In this document: piece by piece, positions 2,453 to 5,462 of the stretch | Numbering within the stretch: position 1 is the first letter of the stretch | Layout of the letters: each line of letters begins with the position of its first letter | Virus record (IMG/VR): IMGVR_UViG_2703718834_000006 | DNA from: a virus | Taxonomy: Duplodnaviria > Heunggongvirae > Uroviricota > Caudoviricetes | Length of the DNA: 10,513 nt | Direction: 5' to 3' (one strand) | Notes under the pieces: model-generated | Databases searched by the model: none | What the model saw: the letters and a program-made list of their open reading frames with translations, nothing else | Told to the model about the DNA's origin: nothing | Program-made: the position numbers and the translations under genes

Positions 2453-3094
2453 TCAAAGCAACGGGATTTCAAGGTAAACTGCGGTTGCCAAAATACTAAC
2501 ATCTTCATTTCTAACAAGAATATTAGGATACATTGGGTTTAGGGATACTAGGTTTGTCTCTATTTCACCAATGTAAACCTGTTTGAAGCTCAATATTTGC
2601 TCTTTATCCAAAGATGCTATTACATAATCTTTGCTTTTAGCTTTTACTAGAGGGCTGAACGTGACAACCGATCCTCTGGGAAAGCTAATACCTGAACTTG
2701 TAGTCATAGCTTCACCTTCAATAGTCAATGCAAATGCAGAGTCACCAACATTGTATATTGCCGGATGAAATCTAGACGATGAATGTTCACCTGTGTTTAG
2801 GTAATGCATAACTTCATCTAGTTTGAGGATTGGTATTTGCTTTACCAGAACGTCAGGCATGACGTTTTTTGTTCCCGGCCCCTGGCCTTCACCCAGAGCT
2901 AACCACTCAGCCGTAGTGCCTAATGCGTTGGCTAATGCCTGCAATACACGAAGCCGTGGTTTAGCCTCACCACCCTCGTATGCAGCTATTTGACGTTGAA
3001 CAACACCAGCTAATTTTGACAACTGCGCCTGCGTCATACCCCTCGACTGTCTTGCCAGAGATACTCTTGATGGGAATTGATCGTCAAAATTCAT
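2453..3094 (-). CDS. Lambda-CI/LexA-like repressor: N-terminal XRE-type HTH plus C-terminal S24-peptidase-like domain with Ser-to-Ala at the nucleophile position (predicted non-cleavable)
   Basis: 213 aa. N-terminus (residues ~10-65) has a Cro/C1-type HTH pattern (MTQAQLSKLAGVVQRQIAAYEGGEAKPRLRVLQALANALGTTAEWL). C-terminus aligns with lambda CI from memory: DSAFALTIEGEAM vs DSAFWLEVEGNSM, ISFPRGSVV vs PSFPDGMLI, SFKQVY..LVSLNPMYP vs [22 protein letters not shown]. Lys171 corresponds to CI K192, but the Ser149 position is Ala129. No A-G or C-G dipeptide in the linker. GGTGA ribosome-binding site upstream of the ATG at 3094. Confidence 0.8.
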   Translation of the reverse strand: MNFDDQFPSRVSLARQSRGMTQAQLSKLAGVVQRQIAAYEGGEAKPRLRVLQALANALGTTAEWLALGEGQGPGTKNVMPDVLVKQIPILKLDEVMHYLNTGEHSSSRFHPAIYNVGDSAFALTIEGEAMTTSSGISFPRGSVVTFSPLVKAKSKDYVIASLDKEQILSFKQVYIGEIETNLVSLNPMYPNILVRNEDVSILATAVYLEIPLL

Positions 3095-3193
3095 TAGTTC
3101 ACCATAAAAAATTCATTGACTCATACTGAGTGTGAGTGAATAATCAAACCTCAAAAAGTGAGATTATGAGTTTTTCAAAAACAGGAGTGCATA
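3095..3193. promoter_or_regulatory. Divergent promoter/operator region between the CI-like gene and arc-ant; candidate Pant-like promoter TTGACT(3116-3121)-N17-AATAAT(3139-3144) with overlapping palindrome and tandem repeats
   Basis: Rightward -35/-10 pair with 17-bp spacing. Palindrome ACTCA-TAC-TGAGT at 3119-3131 overlaps the -35 and spacer, followed directly by tandem TGAGTG TGAGTG (3127-3138), with further GTGAG/TGAG copies at 3158-3170. Operator-like arrangement inside a core promoter, as with the Arc/Mnt operators at P22 Pant. Identified by eye, not scored. Confidence 0.4.
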
Positions 3194-3367
3194 ATGACTG
3201 AAAAGATATCTTCCATCAAGCCGCGTCAGGTTCGTTTTACAGAAAAGGTTGATTCACATATCCGCGAATCAGCAAAAAGATGCCATAGGTCAATTCAGGC
3301 AGAGATAGCTTATCGAATGGAGTTATTAATGAAACTTGAGGCAAAGGGCGATGTTGTCATCCAATAA
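3194..3367 (+). CDS. arc: Arc-like ribbon-helix-helix repressor (57 aa); absent from the supplied ORF track
   Basis: ATG at 3194 preceded by AGGAG (3183-3187) at 6-nt spacing; stop TAA at 3365-3367. Translation: MTEKISSIKPRQVRFTEKVDSHIRESAKRCHRSIQAEIAYRMELLMKLEAKGDVVIQ. Layout matches an RHH fold (N-terminal beta strand then two helices) and resembles P22 Arc (..RSVNSEIYQRVMESFKKEGR..) in the RS..EI and K-G motifs. Lies immediately upstream of ant, as in P22. Confidence 0.6.
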   Translation: MTEKISSIKPRQVRFTEKVDSHIRESAKRCHRSIQAEIAYRMELLMKLEAKGDVVIQ

Positions 3368-3369
3368 AA

Positions 3370-3440
3370 ATAGTGAAGCCCGGCAGTGCGCGAACACAAA
3401 CCGGGCCTCTATGTCAGTAACCGTATGCAAGGAAACTAAC
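3370..3440 (-). ncRNA. Candidate sar-like antisense RNA covering the arc-ant spacer and the ant ribosome-binding site (inferred)
   Basis: On the minus strand an extended -10 element TGcTACAAT (complement of 3447-3455) would start transcription near 3440. It would run through the complement of the ant Shine-Dalgarno/start (3429-3443) and end at the GC-rich hairpin 3378-3406, which on this strand is followed by TTCACTATTTTTA. Predicted length about 70 nt, the size and location of the P22 sar RNA. No expression evidence. Confidence 0.3.
3378..3406. terminator. GC-rich stem-loop in the arc-ant spacer; likely intrinsic terminator for leftward (antisense) transcription and possible attenuator of arc read-through
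   Basis: GCCCGG (3378-3383) pairs with CCGGGC (3401-3406); an inner GTG/CAC pairing is possible within the loop. A T-rich tract follows only on the minus strand (complement of 3365-3377). Confidence 0.35.
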
Positions 3441-4067
3441 ATGAATATTGTAGCAAAATCAGATTACAACTTCCACGGAGTTGAGTTGGTGCCCACCCGT
3501 GATATGCATGGTGTTTGGTTTACATCATCTAATATTGCATCTGCACTTAAATATGCAAATAGCCGTGCAGTAACAATGATTTATAACAAGTATAGCGATG
3601 AGTTTAGCGCCGGGATGACTCAGGTACTCGAAGTGAGTACCTCAGGAAATTATCGCAAAAAAGTGCGAGTTTTCTCACTACGCGGTGCCCACCTAATCGC
3701 GATGTTTGCTCGCACTCCGGTAGCCAAAGAGTTCCGCCGCTGGGTGCTGGATATTTTGGATCGGCAGGCAGAATGCTCACCGATTGCAAAACAGTTCACT
3801 GACGAAGAGCTGGTTAATCTCTGCTACTTACAATTGTGGATGGAGAAGAGTCAACAAATGTGCAAACACATCTACCCAGGAATGAAGCAAATTGGTTCTG
3901 AGCTTTCAGGAAGGATTTACGATATTGCATATGAGACTCGCTACATGTCAGAAGAAACCAAGAAATCACTTCTTCGTGAAATGAAGAATCTTGATACCAA
4001 CAATTTTGTCGTAAAGAACGCTCAGCCAATGCTGGCAAAACTGCGCGGCGAGGAATGGATTCATTGA
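3441..4067 (+). CDS. ant: Antirepressor Ant (Bro-N / AntA-type N-terminal domain)
   Basis: ATG at 3441 with AAGGAA ribosome-binding site at 3429-3434. The track's 3336 start is a TTG that overlaps arc and is rejected. N-terminus YNFHGVELVPTRDMHGVWFTSSNIASALKYANSRAVTMIYNKY...VRVFSLRGAHLIAMFARTPVAKEFRRWVLDILD matches the Bro-N/AntA antirepressor pattern (FxF..., WF.a.dva.aL, rG.lia.f..tp.a.efrrWv). Sits downstream of arc. Confidence 0.8.
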   Translation: MNIVAKSDYNFHGVELVPTRDMHGVWFTSSNIASALKYANSRAVTMIYNKYSDEFSAGMTQVLEVSTSGNYRKKVRVFSLRGAHLIAMFARTPVAKEFRRWVLDILDRQAECSPIAKQFTDEELVNLCYLQLWMEKSQQMCKHIYPGMKQIGSELSGRIYDIAYETRYMSEETKKSLLREMKNLDTNNFVVKNAQPMLAKLRGEEWIH

Positions 4068-4154
4068 TTGGTGCACAGGACGGCGCAAAAGAAAACCGCC
4101 AGTGTGCTGCTGGCGGCCTATGTCACACCCTTACTACCACATAAGGAATGCCTA

Positions 4155-4883
4155 ATGACTTTTAAGAATGTAGCAAACATCGGATCCGTTGTCACGGATA
4201 AAACCATTGACAGCCAGCGCCTGCTTGAGATGGTAAATCAGGCTCGTAGACAGTGCGGTGAGCCGGAGGTTCGTAATAACAAATTCATCGAGAAAATTGA
4301 AGATGAATTGGATGGAGAGCACTACACAAAAAGTGTAGTGCAAAAAGCGAACAAAACTTCGATGGTTATCATTGAGATGTCAATCAAGCAAGCATTGCGA
4401 GTTGCCGCTCGCGAGTCAAAAGCCGTTCGCCGCTCACTGGTAGACCAACTTGAAAGCATGCAAGAAGCGCACATTAAAAGCGGTAAATCAGCGAGTGGAC
4501 TTGTTGAGTATCGTCAAGCGCGAACATTGAAAATGACGGTTGAAGCTGTTACCAATCTGTTCGATCTGATGCCAAATCTTGCGCCTGAGGCAAAGCAGAC
4601 AGCGGCAGCAAGTATAATCAACCCGCTCGTTGGTTTTAATGCAATACCTCTTCCGGCAATAGAAGAGCATTACTACTCAGCAGGGGAGGTTGCAGAGCAG
4701 CTTGGAGTAACGGCCAACAAGATTGGTCGCATTGCTAACGCAAACAACCTCAAAACTGAGCAGTACGGGAAGTTCTTCCTGGATAAATCTGCGCATTCCA
4801 GCAAACAGGTGGAAGCATTCCGCTACAATGCGGAAGGCGTTAAAGCACTACAACACCTGATTCATGGGAGTAATGTTGCATAA
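4155..4883 (+). CDS. Hypothetical phage regulatory protein with C-terminal KilAC (ANT)-like HTH segment; possible second antirepressor-type protein
   Basis: ATG at 4155 with AAGGAA at 4143-4148. The track's 4068 start is a TTG directly after the ant stop and is rejected. The C-terminal stretch YYSAGEVAEQLGVTANKIGRIANANNLKTEQYGKFF resembles the KilAC-domain motif of phage antirepressors (..tEiAkelGvsa..lnk.L...g......g). The N-terminal 150 aa are not recognised. Confidence 0.5.
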   Translation: MTFKNVANIGSVVTDKTIDSQRLLEMVNQARRQCGEPEVRNNKFIEKIEDELDGEHYTKSVVQKANKTSMVIIEMSIKQALRVAARESKAVRRSLVDQLESMQEAHIKSGKSASGLVEYRQARTLKMTVEAVTNLFDLMPNLAPEAKQTAAASIINPLVGFNAIPLPAIEEHYYSAGEVAEQLGVTANKIGRIANANNLKTEQYGKFFLDKSAHSSKQVEAFRYNAEGVKALQHLIHGSNVA

Positions 4884-5110: not shown

Positions 5111-5137
5111 AAACCCGCTTAATCGCGGGTTTTTTCT
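5111..5137 (+). terminator. Rho-independent terminator ending the arc-ant-orf-orf operon; hairpin overlaps the mnt stop codon on the opposite strand
   Basis: AAACCCGC-TTAATC-GCGGGTTTTTTCTTTT: stem CCCGC/GCGGG flanked by A/T pairs, followed by a run of six T (5130-5135). On the minus strand only TTT follows, so termination is probably mainly rightward. Confidence 0.75.
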
Positions 5138-5376
5138 TTTCTAAGGATATCAGCCGCAACTTCTTTTACTCGTTCCGAGATTAATGAGGCCAGCCTCTCT
5201 TCTTCATCACGATACCCGCTTACAGGTGGTGGTTTGGAGAGTGATTCTTCCATCGTAGCCACAATTTCGGAATTGATAGACCTGTTATTCATTTTTGCAC
5301 GCTGTTTAATCTTGGCGTGCAACTCGTGCGTAAGCCTCAAGTGGAACTGCGCCTCATCGTATTTGCTGTACATCAT
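5119..5376 (-). CDS. mnt: Mnt-like ribbon-helix-helix repressor (85 aa)
   Basis: MMYSKYDEAQFHLRLTHELHAKIKQRAKMNNRSINSEIVATMEESLSKPPPVSGYRDEEERLASLISERVKEVAADILRKEKTRD aligns along its length with P22 Mnt as recalled (..PHFNFRMPMEVREKLKFRAEANGRSMNSELLQIVQDALSKPSPVTGYRNDAERLA..). Start is ATGATG at 5376/5373 with a GAGG ribosome-binding site. The 217-aa track ORF (5119-5772) is an in-frame upstream extension and is rejected. Confidence 0.8.
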   Translation of the reverse strand: MMYSKYDEAQFHLRLTHELHAKIKQRAKMNNRSINSEIVATMEESLSKPPPVSGYRDEEERLASLISERVKEVAADILRKEKTRD

Positions 5377-5462
5377 CAATGCCTCACCAAATGGGTGGAA
5401 TGGCATCGTAAAACCTACTGTACAAATCAACAATCGTACCGTTTCGGTATGCAACAAATACC

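Follow-up and report, generated by a model that had tools for sequence, protein, structure and literature searches.

How are the antirepressor genes of a P22-like prophage controlled where the adjoining repressor gene codes for a CI-like protein and not for Mnt? The question is raised by positions 3095-3193 of a 10,513-nt stretch of DNA (hereinafter the window, meaning the whole stretch analysed) from the Caudoviricetes record IMGVR_UViG_2703718834_000006. These 99 bp separate a leftward gene for a CI-like repressor (213 aa; 2453..3094, - strand) from a rightward gene for a 57-aa Arc-like ribbon-helix-helix (RHH) protein (3194..3367, + strand), the first gene of an antirepressor operon. We find them to be the regulatory stretch of a secondary immunity module carried by a P22-like prophage, in the slot named the 'ant moron' by Villafane et al. 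2008 (PMC2629481). That survey listed HS-1, the version in E. coli HS, as apparently lacking arc, with an antirepressor control that must differ from that of P22. The region holds a conserved promoter reading toward the Arc-like gene and bracketed by inverted and direct copies of one hexamer, which we lean toward reading as half-sites of the CI-like repressor. The literature on the module and on the regulation of phage JEP4 yielded no published analysis of this control region or module.

The window shares 97-99% identity and an identical gene order with the prophage of E. coli HS, with other E. coli strains and with the Lederbergvirus JEP4. Judging by its open reading frames (ORFs), the JEP4 and HS annotations and a SieA-like PHROG, the module occupies the P22-like slot between homologues of gene 16 (ejection protein) and gene 9 (tailspike). 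The order runs from the gene 16 homologue through a SieA-like protein to the leftward CI-like repressor; next come rightward ORFs (the 57-aa one, two for antirepressors and a small one), a leftward Arc/Mnt-family gene and the tailspike. Because JEP4 keeps a normal primary immunity region (c2, cro and c1) elsewhere, we take the window module to be a secondary immunity region.

The rightward promoter and the repeats that bracket it

Homologues of the CI-like protein were gathered from viral, metagenome and genome collections and from assemblies; after removal of duplicates they provided 69 distinct upstream regions, which fall into ~28 main-family lineages (individual relatives are given below by L numbers) and one distant branch. 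A scan of genome contigs with a single protein recovered 3 loci, and the wider sampling came from alignment-based scans. Since the copies in E. coli genomes are all at least 95% identical, they are uninformative for footprinting; the set used for conservation among the closest relatives consists of lineages with CI-like proteins 71-81% identical to that of the window.

A sequence-only reading of the window had proposed a divergent control region with a near-consensus promoter, TTGACT-N17-AATAAT, directed toward arc. The divergent layout is borne out, with the CI-like ORF ending at 3094 (- strand) and the Arc-like ORF starting at 3194, and the promoter reads as described. Designated P_R and equivalent to Pant, it spans 3116..3144 on the + strand, with a -35 TTGACT (3116-3121), a 17-nt spacer and a -10 AATAAT (3139-3144), matches the consensus at 10/12 positions and is the sole promoter-like site that a consensus scan finds in 2900-3500. 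Taken alone the match carries no significance, since shuffled sequences average 1.1 sites of this kind. Across the lineages, TTGAC[AT], a 16-18 nt spacer and a -10-like hexamer keep a fixed position in 28/28 cases, with the CI start codon 20-23 nt left of the -35 and the arc ATG 77-82 nt right of the -35 start, and CATTGACTCAT is invariant among the 71-81% relatives. By this sequence comparison the rightward promoter is real, and its transcription would start near 3151. It is preceded by an A-rich, UP-element-like tract (3104..3115, + strand) that takes in the second copy of AAAATTCATT (3108-3117); an A-tract lies upstream of TTGAC in all main-group lineages. An extended -10 (TGn) was rejected for P_R, since it fits neither hexamer register.

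Over the -35 and the spacer lies a perfect 13-bp dyad, ACTCA-TAC-TGAGT (3119..3131), with arms at 3119-3123 and 3127-3131. The same stretch carries the tandem TGAGTG TGAGTG (3127-3138, part of 3125..3138, + strand) and a second dyad, ACTGA-GTG-TGAGT (3125-3137), which matches at 9/10 positions and is shifted by 6 bp. The dyad, the tandem and the downstream copies GTGAG (3158-3162) and TGAG (3167-3170) are all where the earlier reading had placed them. The downstream copies belong to GTGAGA-TT-ATGAGT (3158..3171, + strand), a direct pair of hexamers at 8-bp spacing that would fall at about +8 to +21 of the P_R transcript; the pair is the inverted partner of the -35-proximal ATTCAT-TG-ACTCAT (3111-3124) and the most conserved repeat element. 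Several elements had been overlooked: the hexamer ATGAGT at 3166-3171, which is the best downstream copy; ATTCAT at 3089 and 3111, inside two copies of AAAATTCATT that lie 22 bp apart; and a palindrome, GTTTTT-C-AAAAAC (3170..3182), directly before the arc Shine-Dalgarno. The first copy of AAAATTCATT (3086..3095, + strand, a direct repeat with 3108-3117) holds the CI-like start codon (CAT, 3092-3094; ATGAAT on the - strand), and AAAA(C/T)TCAT is found at the CI start in nearly all lineages; it is a possible leftmost half-site, confounded by the coding sequence (M-N-F-D). The palindrome before the Shine-Dalgarno is kept with a central C or T in close relatives, reads GTTTT-TAT-AAAAC in L049, and is a candidate for an Arc-like (type A) site or an A/T-rich leader element.

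As a palindrome with 5+5 arms and a 0-6 nt spacer is present in 59% of dinucleotide shuffles of the 99 bp, the dyad alone is not significant. The density of the half-site is another matter: only 3/5000 shuffles reach the four TGAGT/ACTCA copies of the 99 bp, and over the whole window the half-site averages 0.23 per 99 bp. ACTCA-N3-TGAGT with ≤1 mismatch has 3 copies in the window where 0.34 would be expected, including an overlapping pair at 3119 and 3125. In the whole JEP4 genome (39 kb) the sole perfect ACTCA-N3-TGAGT and the sole cluster of ≥4 copies are those at this locus. The third near-copy in the window, ACTCG-AAG-TGAGT (1 mismatch; 3626-3638), lies within the antirepressor 1 gene and may be a chance match or a distal site.

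Other symmetries were considered and set aside. A dyad CCTCA-AAAAG-TGAG (3149-3162) was rejected, its CTCA arm being found only in the window and L011 and most close relatives having CTAC or CTGC. An 8-nt inverted repeat, CTTGATGG / CCATCAAG (3066-3073 and 3213-3220), occupies mirror positions in the 5' ends of the two genes and is centred near the P_R -10; its right copy supplies the -35 of a candidate leftward promoter and its left copy no convincing promoter, and we judge it likely to be a chance or coding effect. The half-sites also open short reading frames. ATGAGT at 3166 begins an 11-codon upstream ORF (MSFSKTGVHND) that ends with TGA at 3199-3201, overlaps the arc start and has an M-S-F start resembling the M-N-F-D of the CI-like N-terminus, and ATGAAT (3116-3111) on the opposite strand begins a 5-codon ORF (MNFLW); either these are translated or they are a by-product of the half-sites.

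Conservation of the repeats in relatives, which the sequence-only reading had named as a check, holds for the architecture and fails for some of the copies: one inverted and one to four direct copies are found family-wide, but the right arm of the palindrome and the tandem TGAGTG are the least conserved parts among the 71-81% relatives. Counting offsets from the start of the -35, the 28 diverged lineages share a fixed geometry in which one ACTCA(T) copy lies over the -35 and inverted (A/T/G)TGAGT copies lie at +41-43 and/or +49-51. CTCA is found at +4 in 15 lineages, and TGAG at +41-43 (17 occurrences) and +49-51 (12 occurrences), the sequence between being otherwise unalignable. The window copies at 3158-3163 (+42) and 3166-3171 (+50) are this conserved pair, and GTGAG and TGAGTTT are invariant among the 71-81% relatives. 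The -35/-10 spacer is their most variable stretch, and near-identical prophages differ exactly at 3124-3127 (CATGCTGAGT, CATAGTGAGT and CATTCCGAGT); CATTCCGAGT breaks the right arm, which reads CGAGT in L013/L028/L031. L048 (perfect, ACTCATAATGAGT), L046 (ACTCATCATGAGA), L050 (ACTCATCTTGAGC) and L145 retain the 13-bp frame ACTCA-N3-TGAGT, and L049, L003, L036 and L037 lack it; the tandem TGAGTG, confined to the window clade, is degenerate in L048 (TGAGTGGTGGTT). The distant branch has ACTTCAT-N4/5-ATGAAGT with a further direct ATGAAGT 10 bp on, the same layout with another half-site, and by its sequence is an independent recurrence of an inverted pair plus extra direct copies.

Left and right copies also change together. 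The -35-proximal 7-mer compared with the reverse complement of +36..+62 scores 5.74 within a lineage and 5.19 ± 0.12 between lineages (0/20000 permutations), the matched pairs being ACTCAT-ATGAGT, ACTCAAT-ATTGAG and ACACA-TGTG. Partners within the spacer likewise match their own left arm, as in GACACA-C-TGTGTC (L142), ACACA-N6-TGTGT (L070) and ATATGAAT-A-ATTCATAT (L112, L164). Because the lineages fall into few clades, the independent covariation events behind these figures are few.

Which protein reads the hexamers

The earlier suggestion that the Arc-like and/or the CI-like protein binds the repeats can be narrowed to the CI-like partner, in that the repeats track the CI-like protein but do not track the β-strand of the Arc-like one. 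The CI-like protein combines an N-terminal HTH_3 domain (434-repressor-like; Pfam 9e-13) with a C-terminal Peptidase_S24 domain (lambda CI-like; 1e-12), and a search of the PDB recovers the lambda CI C-terminal domain (E ~1e-7) and the 434 repressor N-terminal domain (E ~4e-6). Its position 33, directly before the invariant RQIAAYE of the recognition helix, aligns with Gln28 of the 434 repressor. Residue 33 is R in 10/10 lineages with TTGACACA (ACACA-type) and Q, H, A, T or P in 16/17 lineages with TTGACTC; lineages with Q, H, A or T have ACTCAT, those with P mostly ACTCAAT / ATTGAG, and in the distant branch GVSQRQ in the CI-like protein goes with ACTTCAT / ATGAAGT. On this covariation with the recognition helix, we place slightly more belief than doubt in the hexamers being half-sites of the CI-like repressor.

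The Arc-like β-strand shows no such correspondence with the hexamers. ACTCA-type and ACACA-type sites are both found with each of the types KPMAYRM, KPISYRP and KQISYR, one hexamer occurs across types A, B, KPISYRP, KQISYR and D, and differing hexamers accompany identical β-strands. For instance, L140 and L126 have Arc-like proteins that are 98% identical, yet their control regions show no relation as far as the Shine-Dalgarno; L048 and L050 have another β-strand (KPMAYRM), yet keep the ACTCAT-N-xTGAGx of the window; and L112 and L164 have the β-strand of the window (KPRQVRF) with a different spacer dyad and a CI-like protein 46% identical. The dyads that follow the Arc type sit downstream of the -10, often around the conserved TGAG: CGCA-N8-TGCG and CACACC-N5/6-GGTGTG in type B, ACATC-N5-GATGT vs ACATT-N5-AATGT in type D (a compensatory change) and ATATCAT...ATGATAT in the NNMLVRM type. 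In type A, that of the window, the sole shared element is ATGAGTTTT(T) with the A-tract that follows (3166-3182). By their sequence these downstream dyads are the likelier Arc-like sites.

Several observations weigh against assigning the hexamers to the CI-like repressor. The repeats are physically linked to the CI gene, so that their association with CI type could be co-inheritance, the independent events numbering perhaps no more than 3-4. In most lineages the hexamers stand alone at intervals of 37-39 bp instead of forming local dyads of 13-17 bp, and a dimer of the lambda/434 type does not bind isolated hexamers at such a distance. The covarying base positions differ from those expected for contacts by 434 Gln28, and L049, with a CI-like protein 71% identical, has no spacer dyad. 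The direct repeats are spaced much as in RHH operators, with intervals of 8, 7, 6 and 8 bp in the window and of 10 bp in the distant branch. In addition, the 13-bp dyad shows the 4-bp boxes 5 bp apart that make up the symmetric element of Arc/CopG (PMC2724298), and it occupies the same place, between -35 and -10, as the Arc operator of P22.

The linkage to CI, the isolated hexamers, the RHH-like spacing and geometry, and an invariant arginine in the Arc-like protein make a serious rival of the alternative that the array is the operator of the Arc-like RHH protein, the CI-like protein binding something else or fewer sites. Several dimers would then lie side by side, as in MetJ (8-bp boxes), omega (7-bp heptads) and Arc/CopG (13-bp symmetric element). 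The Arc-like family is indeed RHH, and its Arg14 (the equivalent of Arc Arg13), invariant in all types, could read the G's of TGAG whatever the remaining strand. The 8-bp spacing recurs in L003, L048, L049 and L146, the repeats occur in both orientations, TGA(C/G)TCA is a 7-bp self-palindrome that would fit a single two-fold β-sheet, ACTC-N5-GAGT shares both the geometry and the position of P22's Arc operator, and ATGAGTTTT is found in 6/6 type-A lineages and ~3/14 others. We nevertheless consider this alternative unlikely: the hexamer is constant among Arc types whose base-contacting residues vary (the equivalent of Asn11 being Q, A, S or P) and changes between identical Arc β-strands (L140 vs L037 and L126; the window vs L112 and L164), while the dyads that vary with Arc type are found past the -10 (CGCA-N8-TGCG; ACATC-N5-GATGT vs ACATT-N5-AATGT).

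A narrower doubt concerns the spacer copies of TGAGT, in the tandem and in the right arm of the palindrome, which might be a 6-bp slippage duplication followed by drift and have no function, with only the -35-proximal and downstream copies mattering. This accords with the spacer being the most variable part among the 71-81% relatives and the exact site of difference (3124-3127) between near-identical prophages, with the lack of a spacer copy in L049, L003 and L037, and with the expectation of one 5+5 palindrome by chance. However, about 1/3 of lineages have a spacer partner hexamer, and it always matches their own half-site (ACTCAT/ATGAGT; GACACA-C-TGTGTC in L142; ACACA-N6-TGTGT in L070; ACTTCAT/ATGAAGT in the distant branch; ATGAAT/ATTCAT in L112). 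Because of this covariation drift is hard to accept, and we rate the loss of function in the spacer as doubtful, if a little less so than an RHH operator. Lower still in our estimation, and distinctly improbable, is that the CI-like repressor reads single hexamers flanking the polymerase core, or that the HTH and RHH proteins both read the same hexamer. In the single-hexamer version the repressor would not use ordinary local dyads: it would recognise one inverted copy at the -35 and, at a constant distance of ~37-47 bp downstream, one to four direct copies, which would imply a higher-order repressor oligomer that clamps or wraps the promoter; in the shared version, two unrelated folds would compete or cooperate on one repeat array.

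The leftward promoter and the proposed switch

The leftward promoter had been held to overlap necessarily the same 99 bp. This is doubtful, as in the sole positionally conserved candidate the -10 covers the start codon of arc and the -35 falls within that gene. This candidate P_L (3191..3219, - strand; -35 TTGATG at 3219-3214, a 17-nt spacer and -10 CATTAT at 3196-3191) lies mostly outside the 99 bp and faces P_R. Its -10 is the complement of ATAATG at the arc start and its -35, TTGAT(A/G), the complement of arc Ile-Lys codons. The position gives the best - strand match in 21/28 lineages, a promoter scan reports TTGATA-N17-CATTAT in L003 and L048, and synonymous sites in the codons that underlie the -35 do not vary (ATC AAG 16/16; Lys AAG 21/21), in contrast to neighbouring codons. 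Against it, the window version matches at 8/12 positions, below the scan threshold, and the conservation could reflect constraints from coding and translation start. If P_L is real, its start would be near 3184, ~32 bp from that of P_R (~3151), and the two promoters would stand face-to-face, not back-to-back.

The layout first envisaged, with both promoters back-to-back or overlapping within the 99 bp and one operator array setting both directions, has a leftward candidate in TTGATT (3147-3142), a 16-nt spacer and TATGAG (3125-3120), the -10 being the left arm of the palindrome. The pair is found in the window and L048 (4.0 bits) and leaves a 19-nt leader carrying GGTG (3100..3103, - strand; read directly), the Shine-Dalgarno-like element kept 5-8 nt before the CI start in relatives. 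It also mirrors the overlapping Pant/Pmnt arrangement described for P22, on the positions of which the open-access accounts gave general statements alone. Yet the match is weak, TATGAG lacking the final T, the consensus scan does not report it, its position is conserved in one sub-clade only, and the competitor at 3219-3191 has in its favour both recurrence, in 21/28 lineages, and invariant synonymous codons. We regard this layout as quite unlikely.

From the observed sequences, their conservation and covariation, and the protein families, we infer the following binding partners, transcription starts and direction of regulation. A strong sigma-70 P_R would drive the operon of the Arc-like RHH protein and two antirepressors, its core being bracketed by ATTCAT and ACTCAT on the left, over the -35, and by (A/C/G)TGAG(T/A) on the right at 3126, 3132, 3158 and 3166. 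In the lysogen, CI-like repressor made from P_L may occupy the 13-bp dyad at 3119-3131, the proposed primary operator in this lineage (or the 6-bp-shifted 3125-3137), together with the downstream pair at 3158-3171. Such occupancy would turn P_R off and silence the antirepressors, and the extra spacer copy (3125-3137, 9/10) may raise occupancy or be a neutral product of slippage. The CI-like gene is most likely transcribed from the weak P_L facing P_R, so that repression of P_R would relieve interference on P_L and favour the repressor's own synthesis; the same logic operates for Mnt at Pant/Pmnt and in face-to-face switches such as that of phage 186. Occupancy of 3158-3171, at ~+13 to +26 of the P_L transcript, could in turn limit P_L. 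On infection P_R would fire, and the operon is then presumably damped by the Arc-like protein, acting at a site of its own around +1 to +30. This site differs by lineage; its candidates in the window are ATGA-GTTTT-TCAA and GTTTTT-C-AAAAAC (3166-3182).

The CI-like protein is probably not inducible by the SOS response. Its catalytic serine is replaced by alanine, the lambda EGNSM (Ser149) aligning with EGEAM (residues about 126-130), while the catalytic lysine is retained (FKK vs FKQ in the alignment). Because of the replacement we expect no cleavage by RecA, self-cleavage having probably been lost. Most relatives have GDSM and the closest GDAM or GEAM; some of those with GDSM may, by the same sequence criterion, be SOS-inducible. 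A LexA box (CTGT-N8-ACAG) was sought by eye and none was found.

The Arc-like gene belongs to PHROG 10182 ('unknown function') and is preceded by a Shine-Dalgarno, AGGAG (3183..3187, + strand; read directly), conserved among the 71-81% relatives. The single protein gave ParD_like at 8e-4, below the Pfam cut-off, and phmmer against the PDB recovered AmrZ only (E = 0.8). A profile of 19 diverse homologues recovered AmrZ (4e-5), Arc (6e-5 and 0.003), Mnt (0.0018) and CopG (0.0026), and 6/19 family members match Pfam Arc; these matches justify the name 'Arc-like' at the superfamily level. An AlphaFold2 monomer model (3194-3364), built on a shallow alignment of near-identical sequences, has one helix (residues 17-50, pLDDT above 90) and a disordered N-terminus; this continuous helix in place of strand-helix-helix is probably an artefact of the monomer or of the shallow alignment, and the model speaks neither for nor against an RHH fold.

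Farther into the operon lie antirepressor 1 (3441..4067, + strand; Bro-N and P22AR_C domains) and antirepressor 2 (4152..4883, + strand; PHROG 1726, anti-repressor). Convergent with them at the far end, beside the tailspike gene, is the Arc/Mnt-family gene (5119-5376, - strand; Pfam Arc 4e-14). A perfect 13-bp dyad of Arc/CopG-type geometry, CACC-AAATG-GGTG (5385-5397), lies 9-21 bp upstream of its start and is likely, on sequence, to be its own operator; 3095-3193 contain no dyad of the CACC-N5-GGTG type. Action of this Mnt-like protein at 3095-3193 was rejected as unlikely, the gene being 2 kb away with its own dyad adjacent. Between arc and ant (3362-3450) the - strand is predicted to form two hairpins (-35.1 kcal/mol, z = -6.0), the first spanning the ant ribosome-binding site and start and the second being GC-rich and followed by CUUCACUAUUUUU (a U-run); the predicted fold looks like the sar-type antisense RNA of P22, and a search of the full window against Rfam (E ≤ 1) returned nothing. 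In ~40 other E. coli genomes, canonical 'Arc family' genes have ends that share bases 3361-3400 at 95-97%.

In every sampled case the CI-like gene reads leftward and an Arc-like gene, then one to three antirepressor-type genes, read rightward; the module recurs in unrelated phage backbones, adjoining tape-measure, baseplate or tailspike genes. In L046, L050 and L166-L170 it lies in long-tailed phages beside tape-measure, tail-L, baseplate or Big_2 genes, with hosts that include Yersinia, Klebsiella, Hafnia, Serratia, Enterobacter and Providencia. JEP4 and Providencia phage PSTNGR2lys are the only cultured phages of the INPHARED set in which the CI-like gene is present. Alignment of the window with L048 extends from the CI gene to the end of AATAATCAA (~3147, a short way past the -10), beyond which the two diverge along with Arc type, and L140 and L126 have the arc gene in common up to the Shine-Dalgarno and share nothing upstream. 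These recombination junctions imply that the control region travels with the CI-like gene and that arc-ant cassettes are swapped in behind it.

Comparison with known immunity systems

Antirepressor modules let one prophage induce others, and immI of P22 is the textbook case and the source of the model proteins Arc and Mnt. The arrangement described here is an alternative wiring, with a lambda/434-type repressor in Mnt's place beside an unannotated Arc-like protein, found in phages of several tail types from E. coli, Salmonella, Yersinia, Klebsiella, Hafnia and Providencia. It fills the gap that the 2008 survey recorded for HS-1 regulation with concrete, testable operators and promoters, and the pairing of residue 33 with the half-site offers a natural set of specificity variants for the evolution of HTH recognition. 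We see in it a useful annotation and a modest mechanistic lead; it establishes no new principle and overturns nothing.

The likeness to P22 immI extends to the genomic slot, flanked by homologues of gene 16 and the tailspike gene (PMC2629481), to an antirepressor operon that opens with a small RHH gene, to a divergent maintenance repressor adjoining that operon and to a 13-bp dyad between -35 and -10. It may extend to sar as well, which a predicted bottom-strand hairpin with a U-run between arc and ant resembles. In contrast to P22, the neighbouring repressor of the window is of the HTH_3 + S24 (CI-like) type and not the RHH tetramer Mnt, the Mnt-like gene stands 2 kb off, at the opposite end of the operon, the antirepressor genes number two, and the promoters appear to be face-to-face where those of P22 are divergent and overlapping. 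Neither P22 operator sequence (Arc, Mnt) occurs in this control region: the Arc operator of P22 is TAGA-N5-TCTA, which is absent from 3095-3193, the dyad ACTC-N5-GAGT there having the same geometry and another sequence. The CI-like repressor would fill the role that Mnt plays in P22.

With the lambda/434 OR regions the window shares a repressor with a 434-like HTH and a lambda-CI-like C-terminal domain, a dyad of 13 bp (14 bp in 434) with an outer 'AC' that overlaps the rightward promoter, a divergent repressor gene with a probably weak promoter, and an operator that covaries with recognition-helix residues, albeit over few independent events and in linkage to the CI gene. It seems to differ in having no array of three similar 14-17-bp dyads: the window has one perfect 13-bp dyad and one overlapping at 9/10, the remaining copies being isolated hexamers, and across the family these mostly flank the promoter 37-39 bp apart. 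Further, the partner regulator is an RHH protein and not Cro, the repressor has no catalytic Ser (Lys kept), and the switch controls antirepressors instead of the lytic early operon.

The LexA-controlled antirepressor genes gfoA/gftA (Gifsy), Tum (186) and AntC (N15) answer to a dedicated SOS-type repressor of the LexA/CI superfamily at the promoter (PMC3121763), and the window resembles them in having an antirepressor outside the main immunity region kept off by a member of this superfamily. An SOS link is doubtful, because in the window this repressor is phage-encoded, adjoins the operon and has lost the catalytic Ser, which relatives keep as GDSM. The repeats recall the RHH operators of MetJ, omega and Arc/CopG in combining short direct and inverted copies at spacings under one helical turn; unlike in those systems, the repeat sequence in the window family does not follow the RHH β-strand type. 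The module is best filed as an uncharacterised yet widespread CI-like/Arc-like/Ant version of the P22 immI / lambdoid switch.

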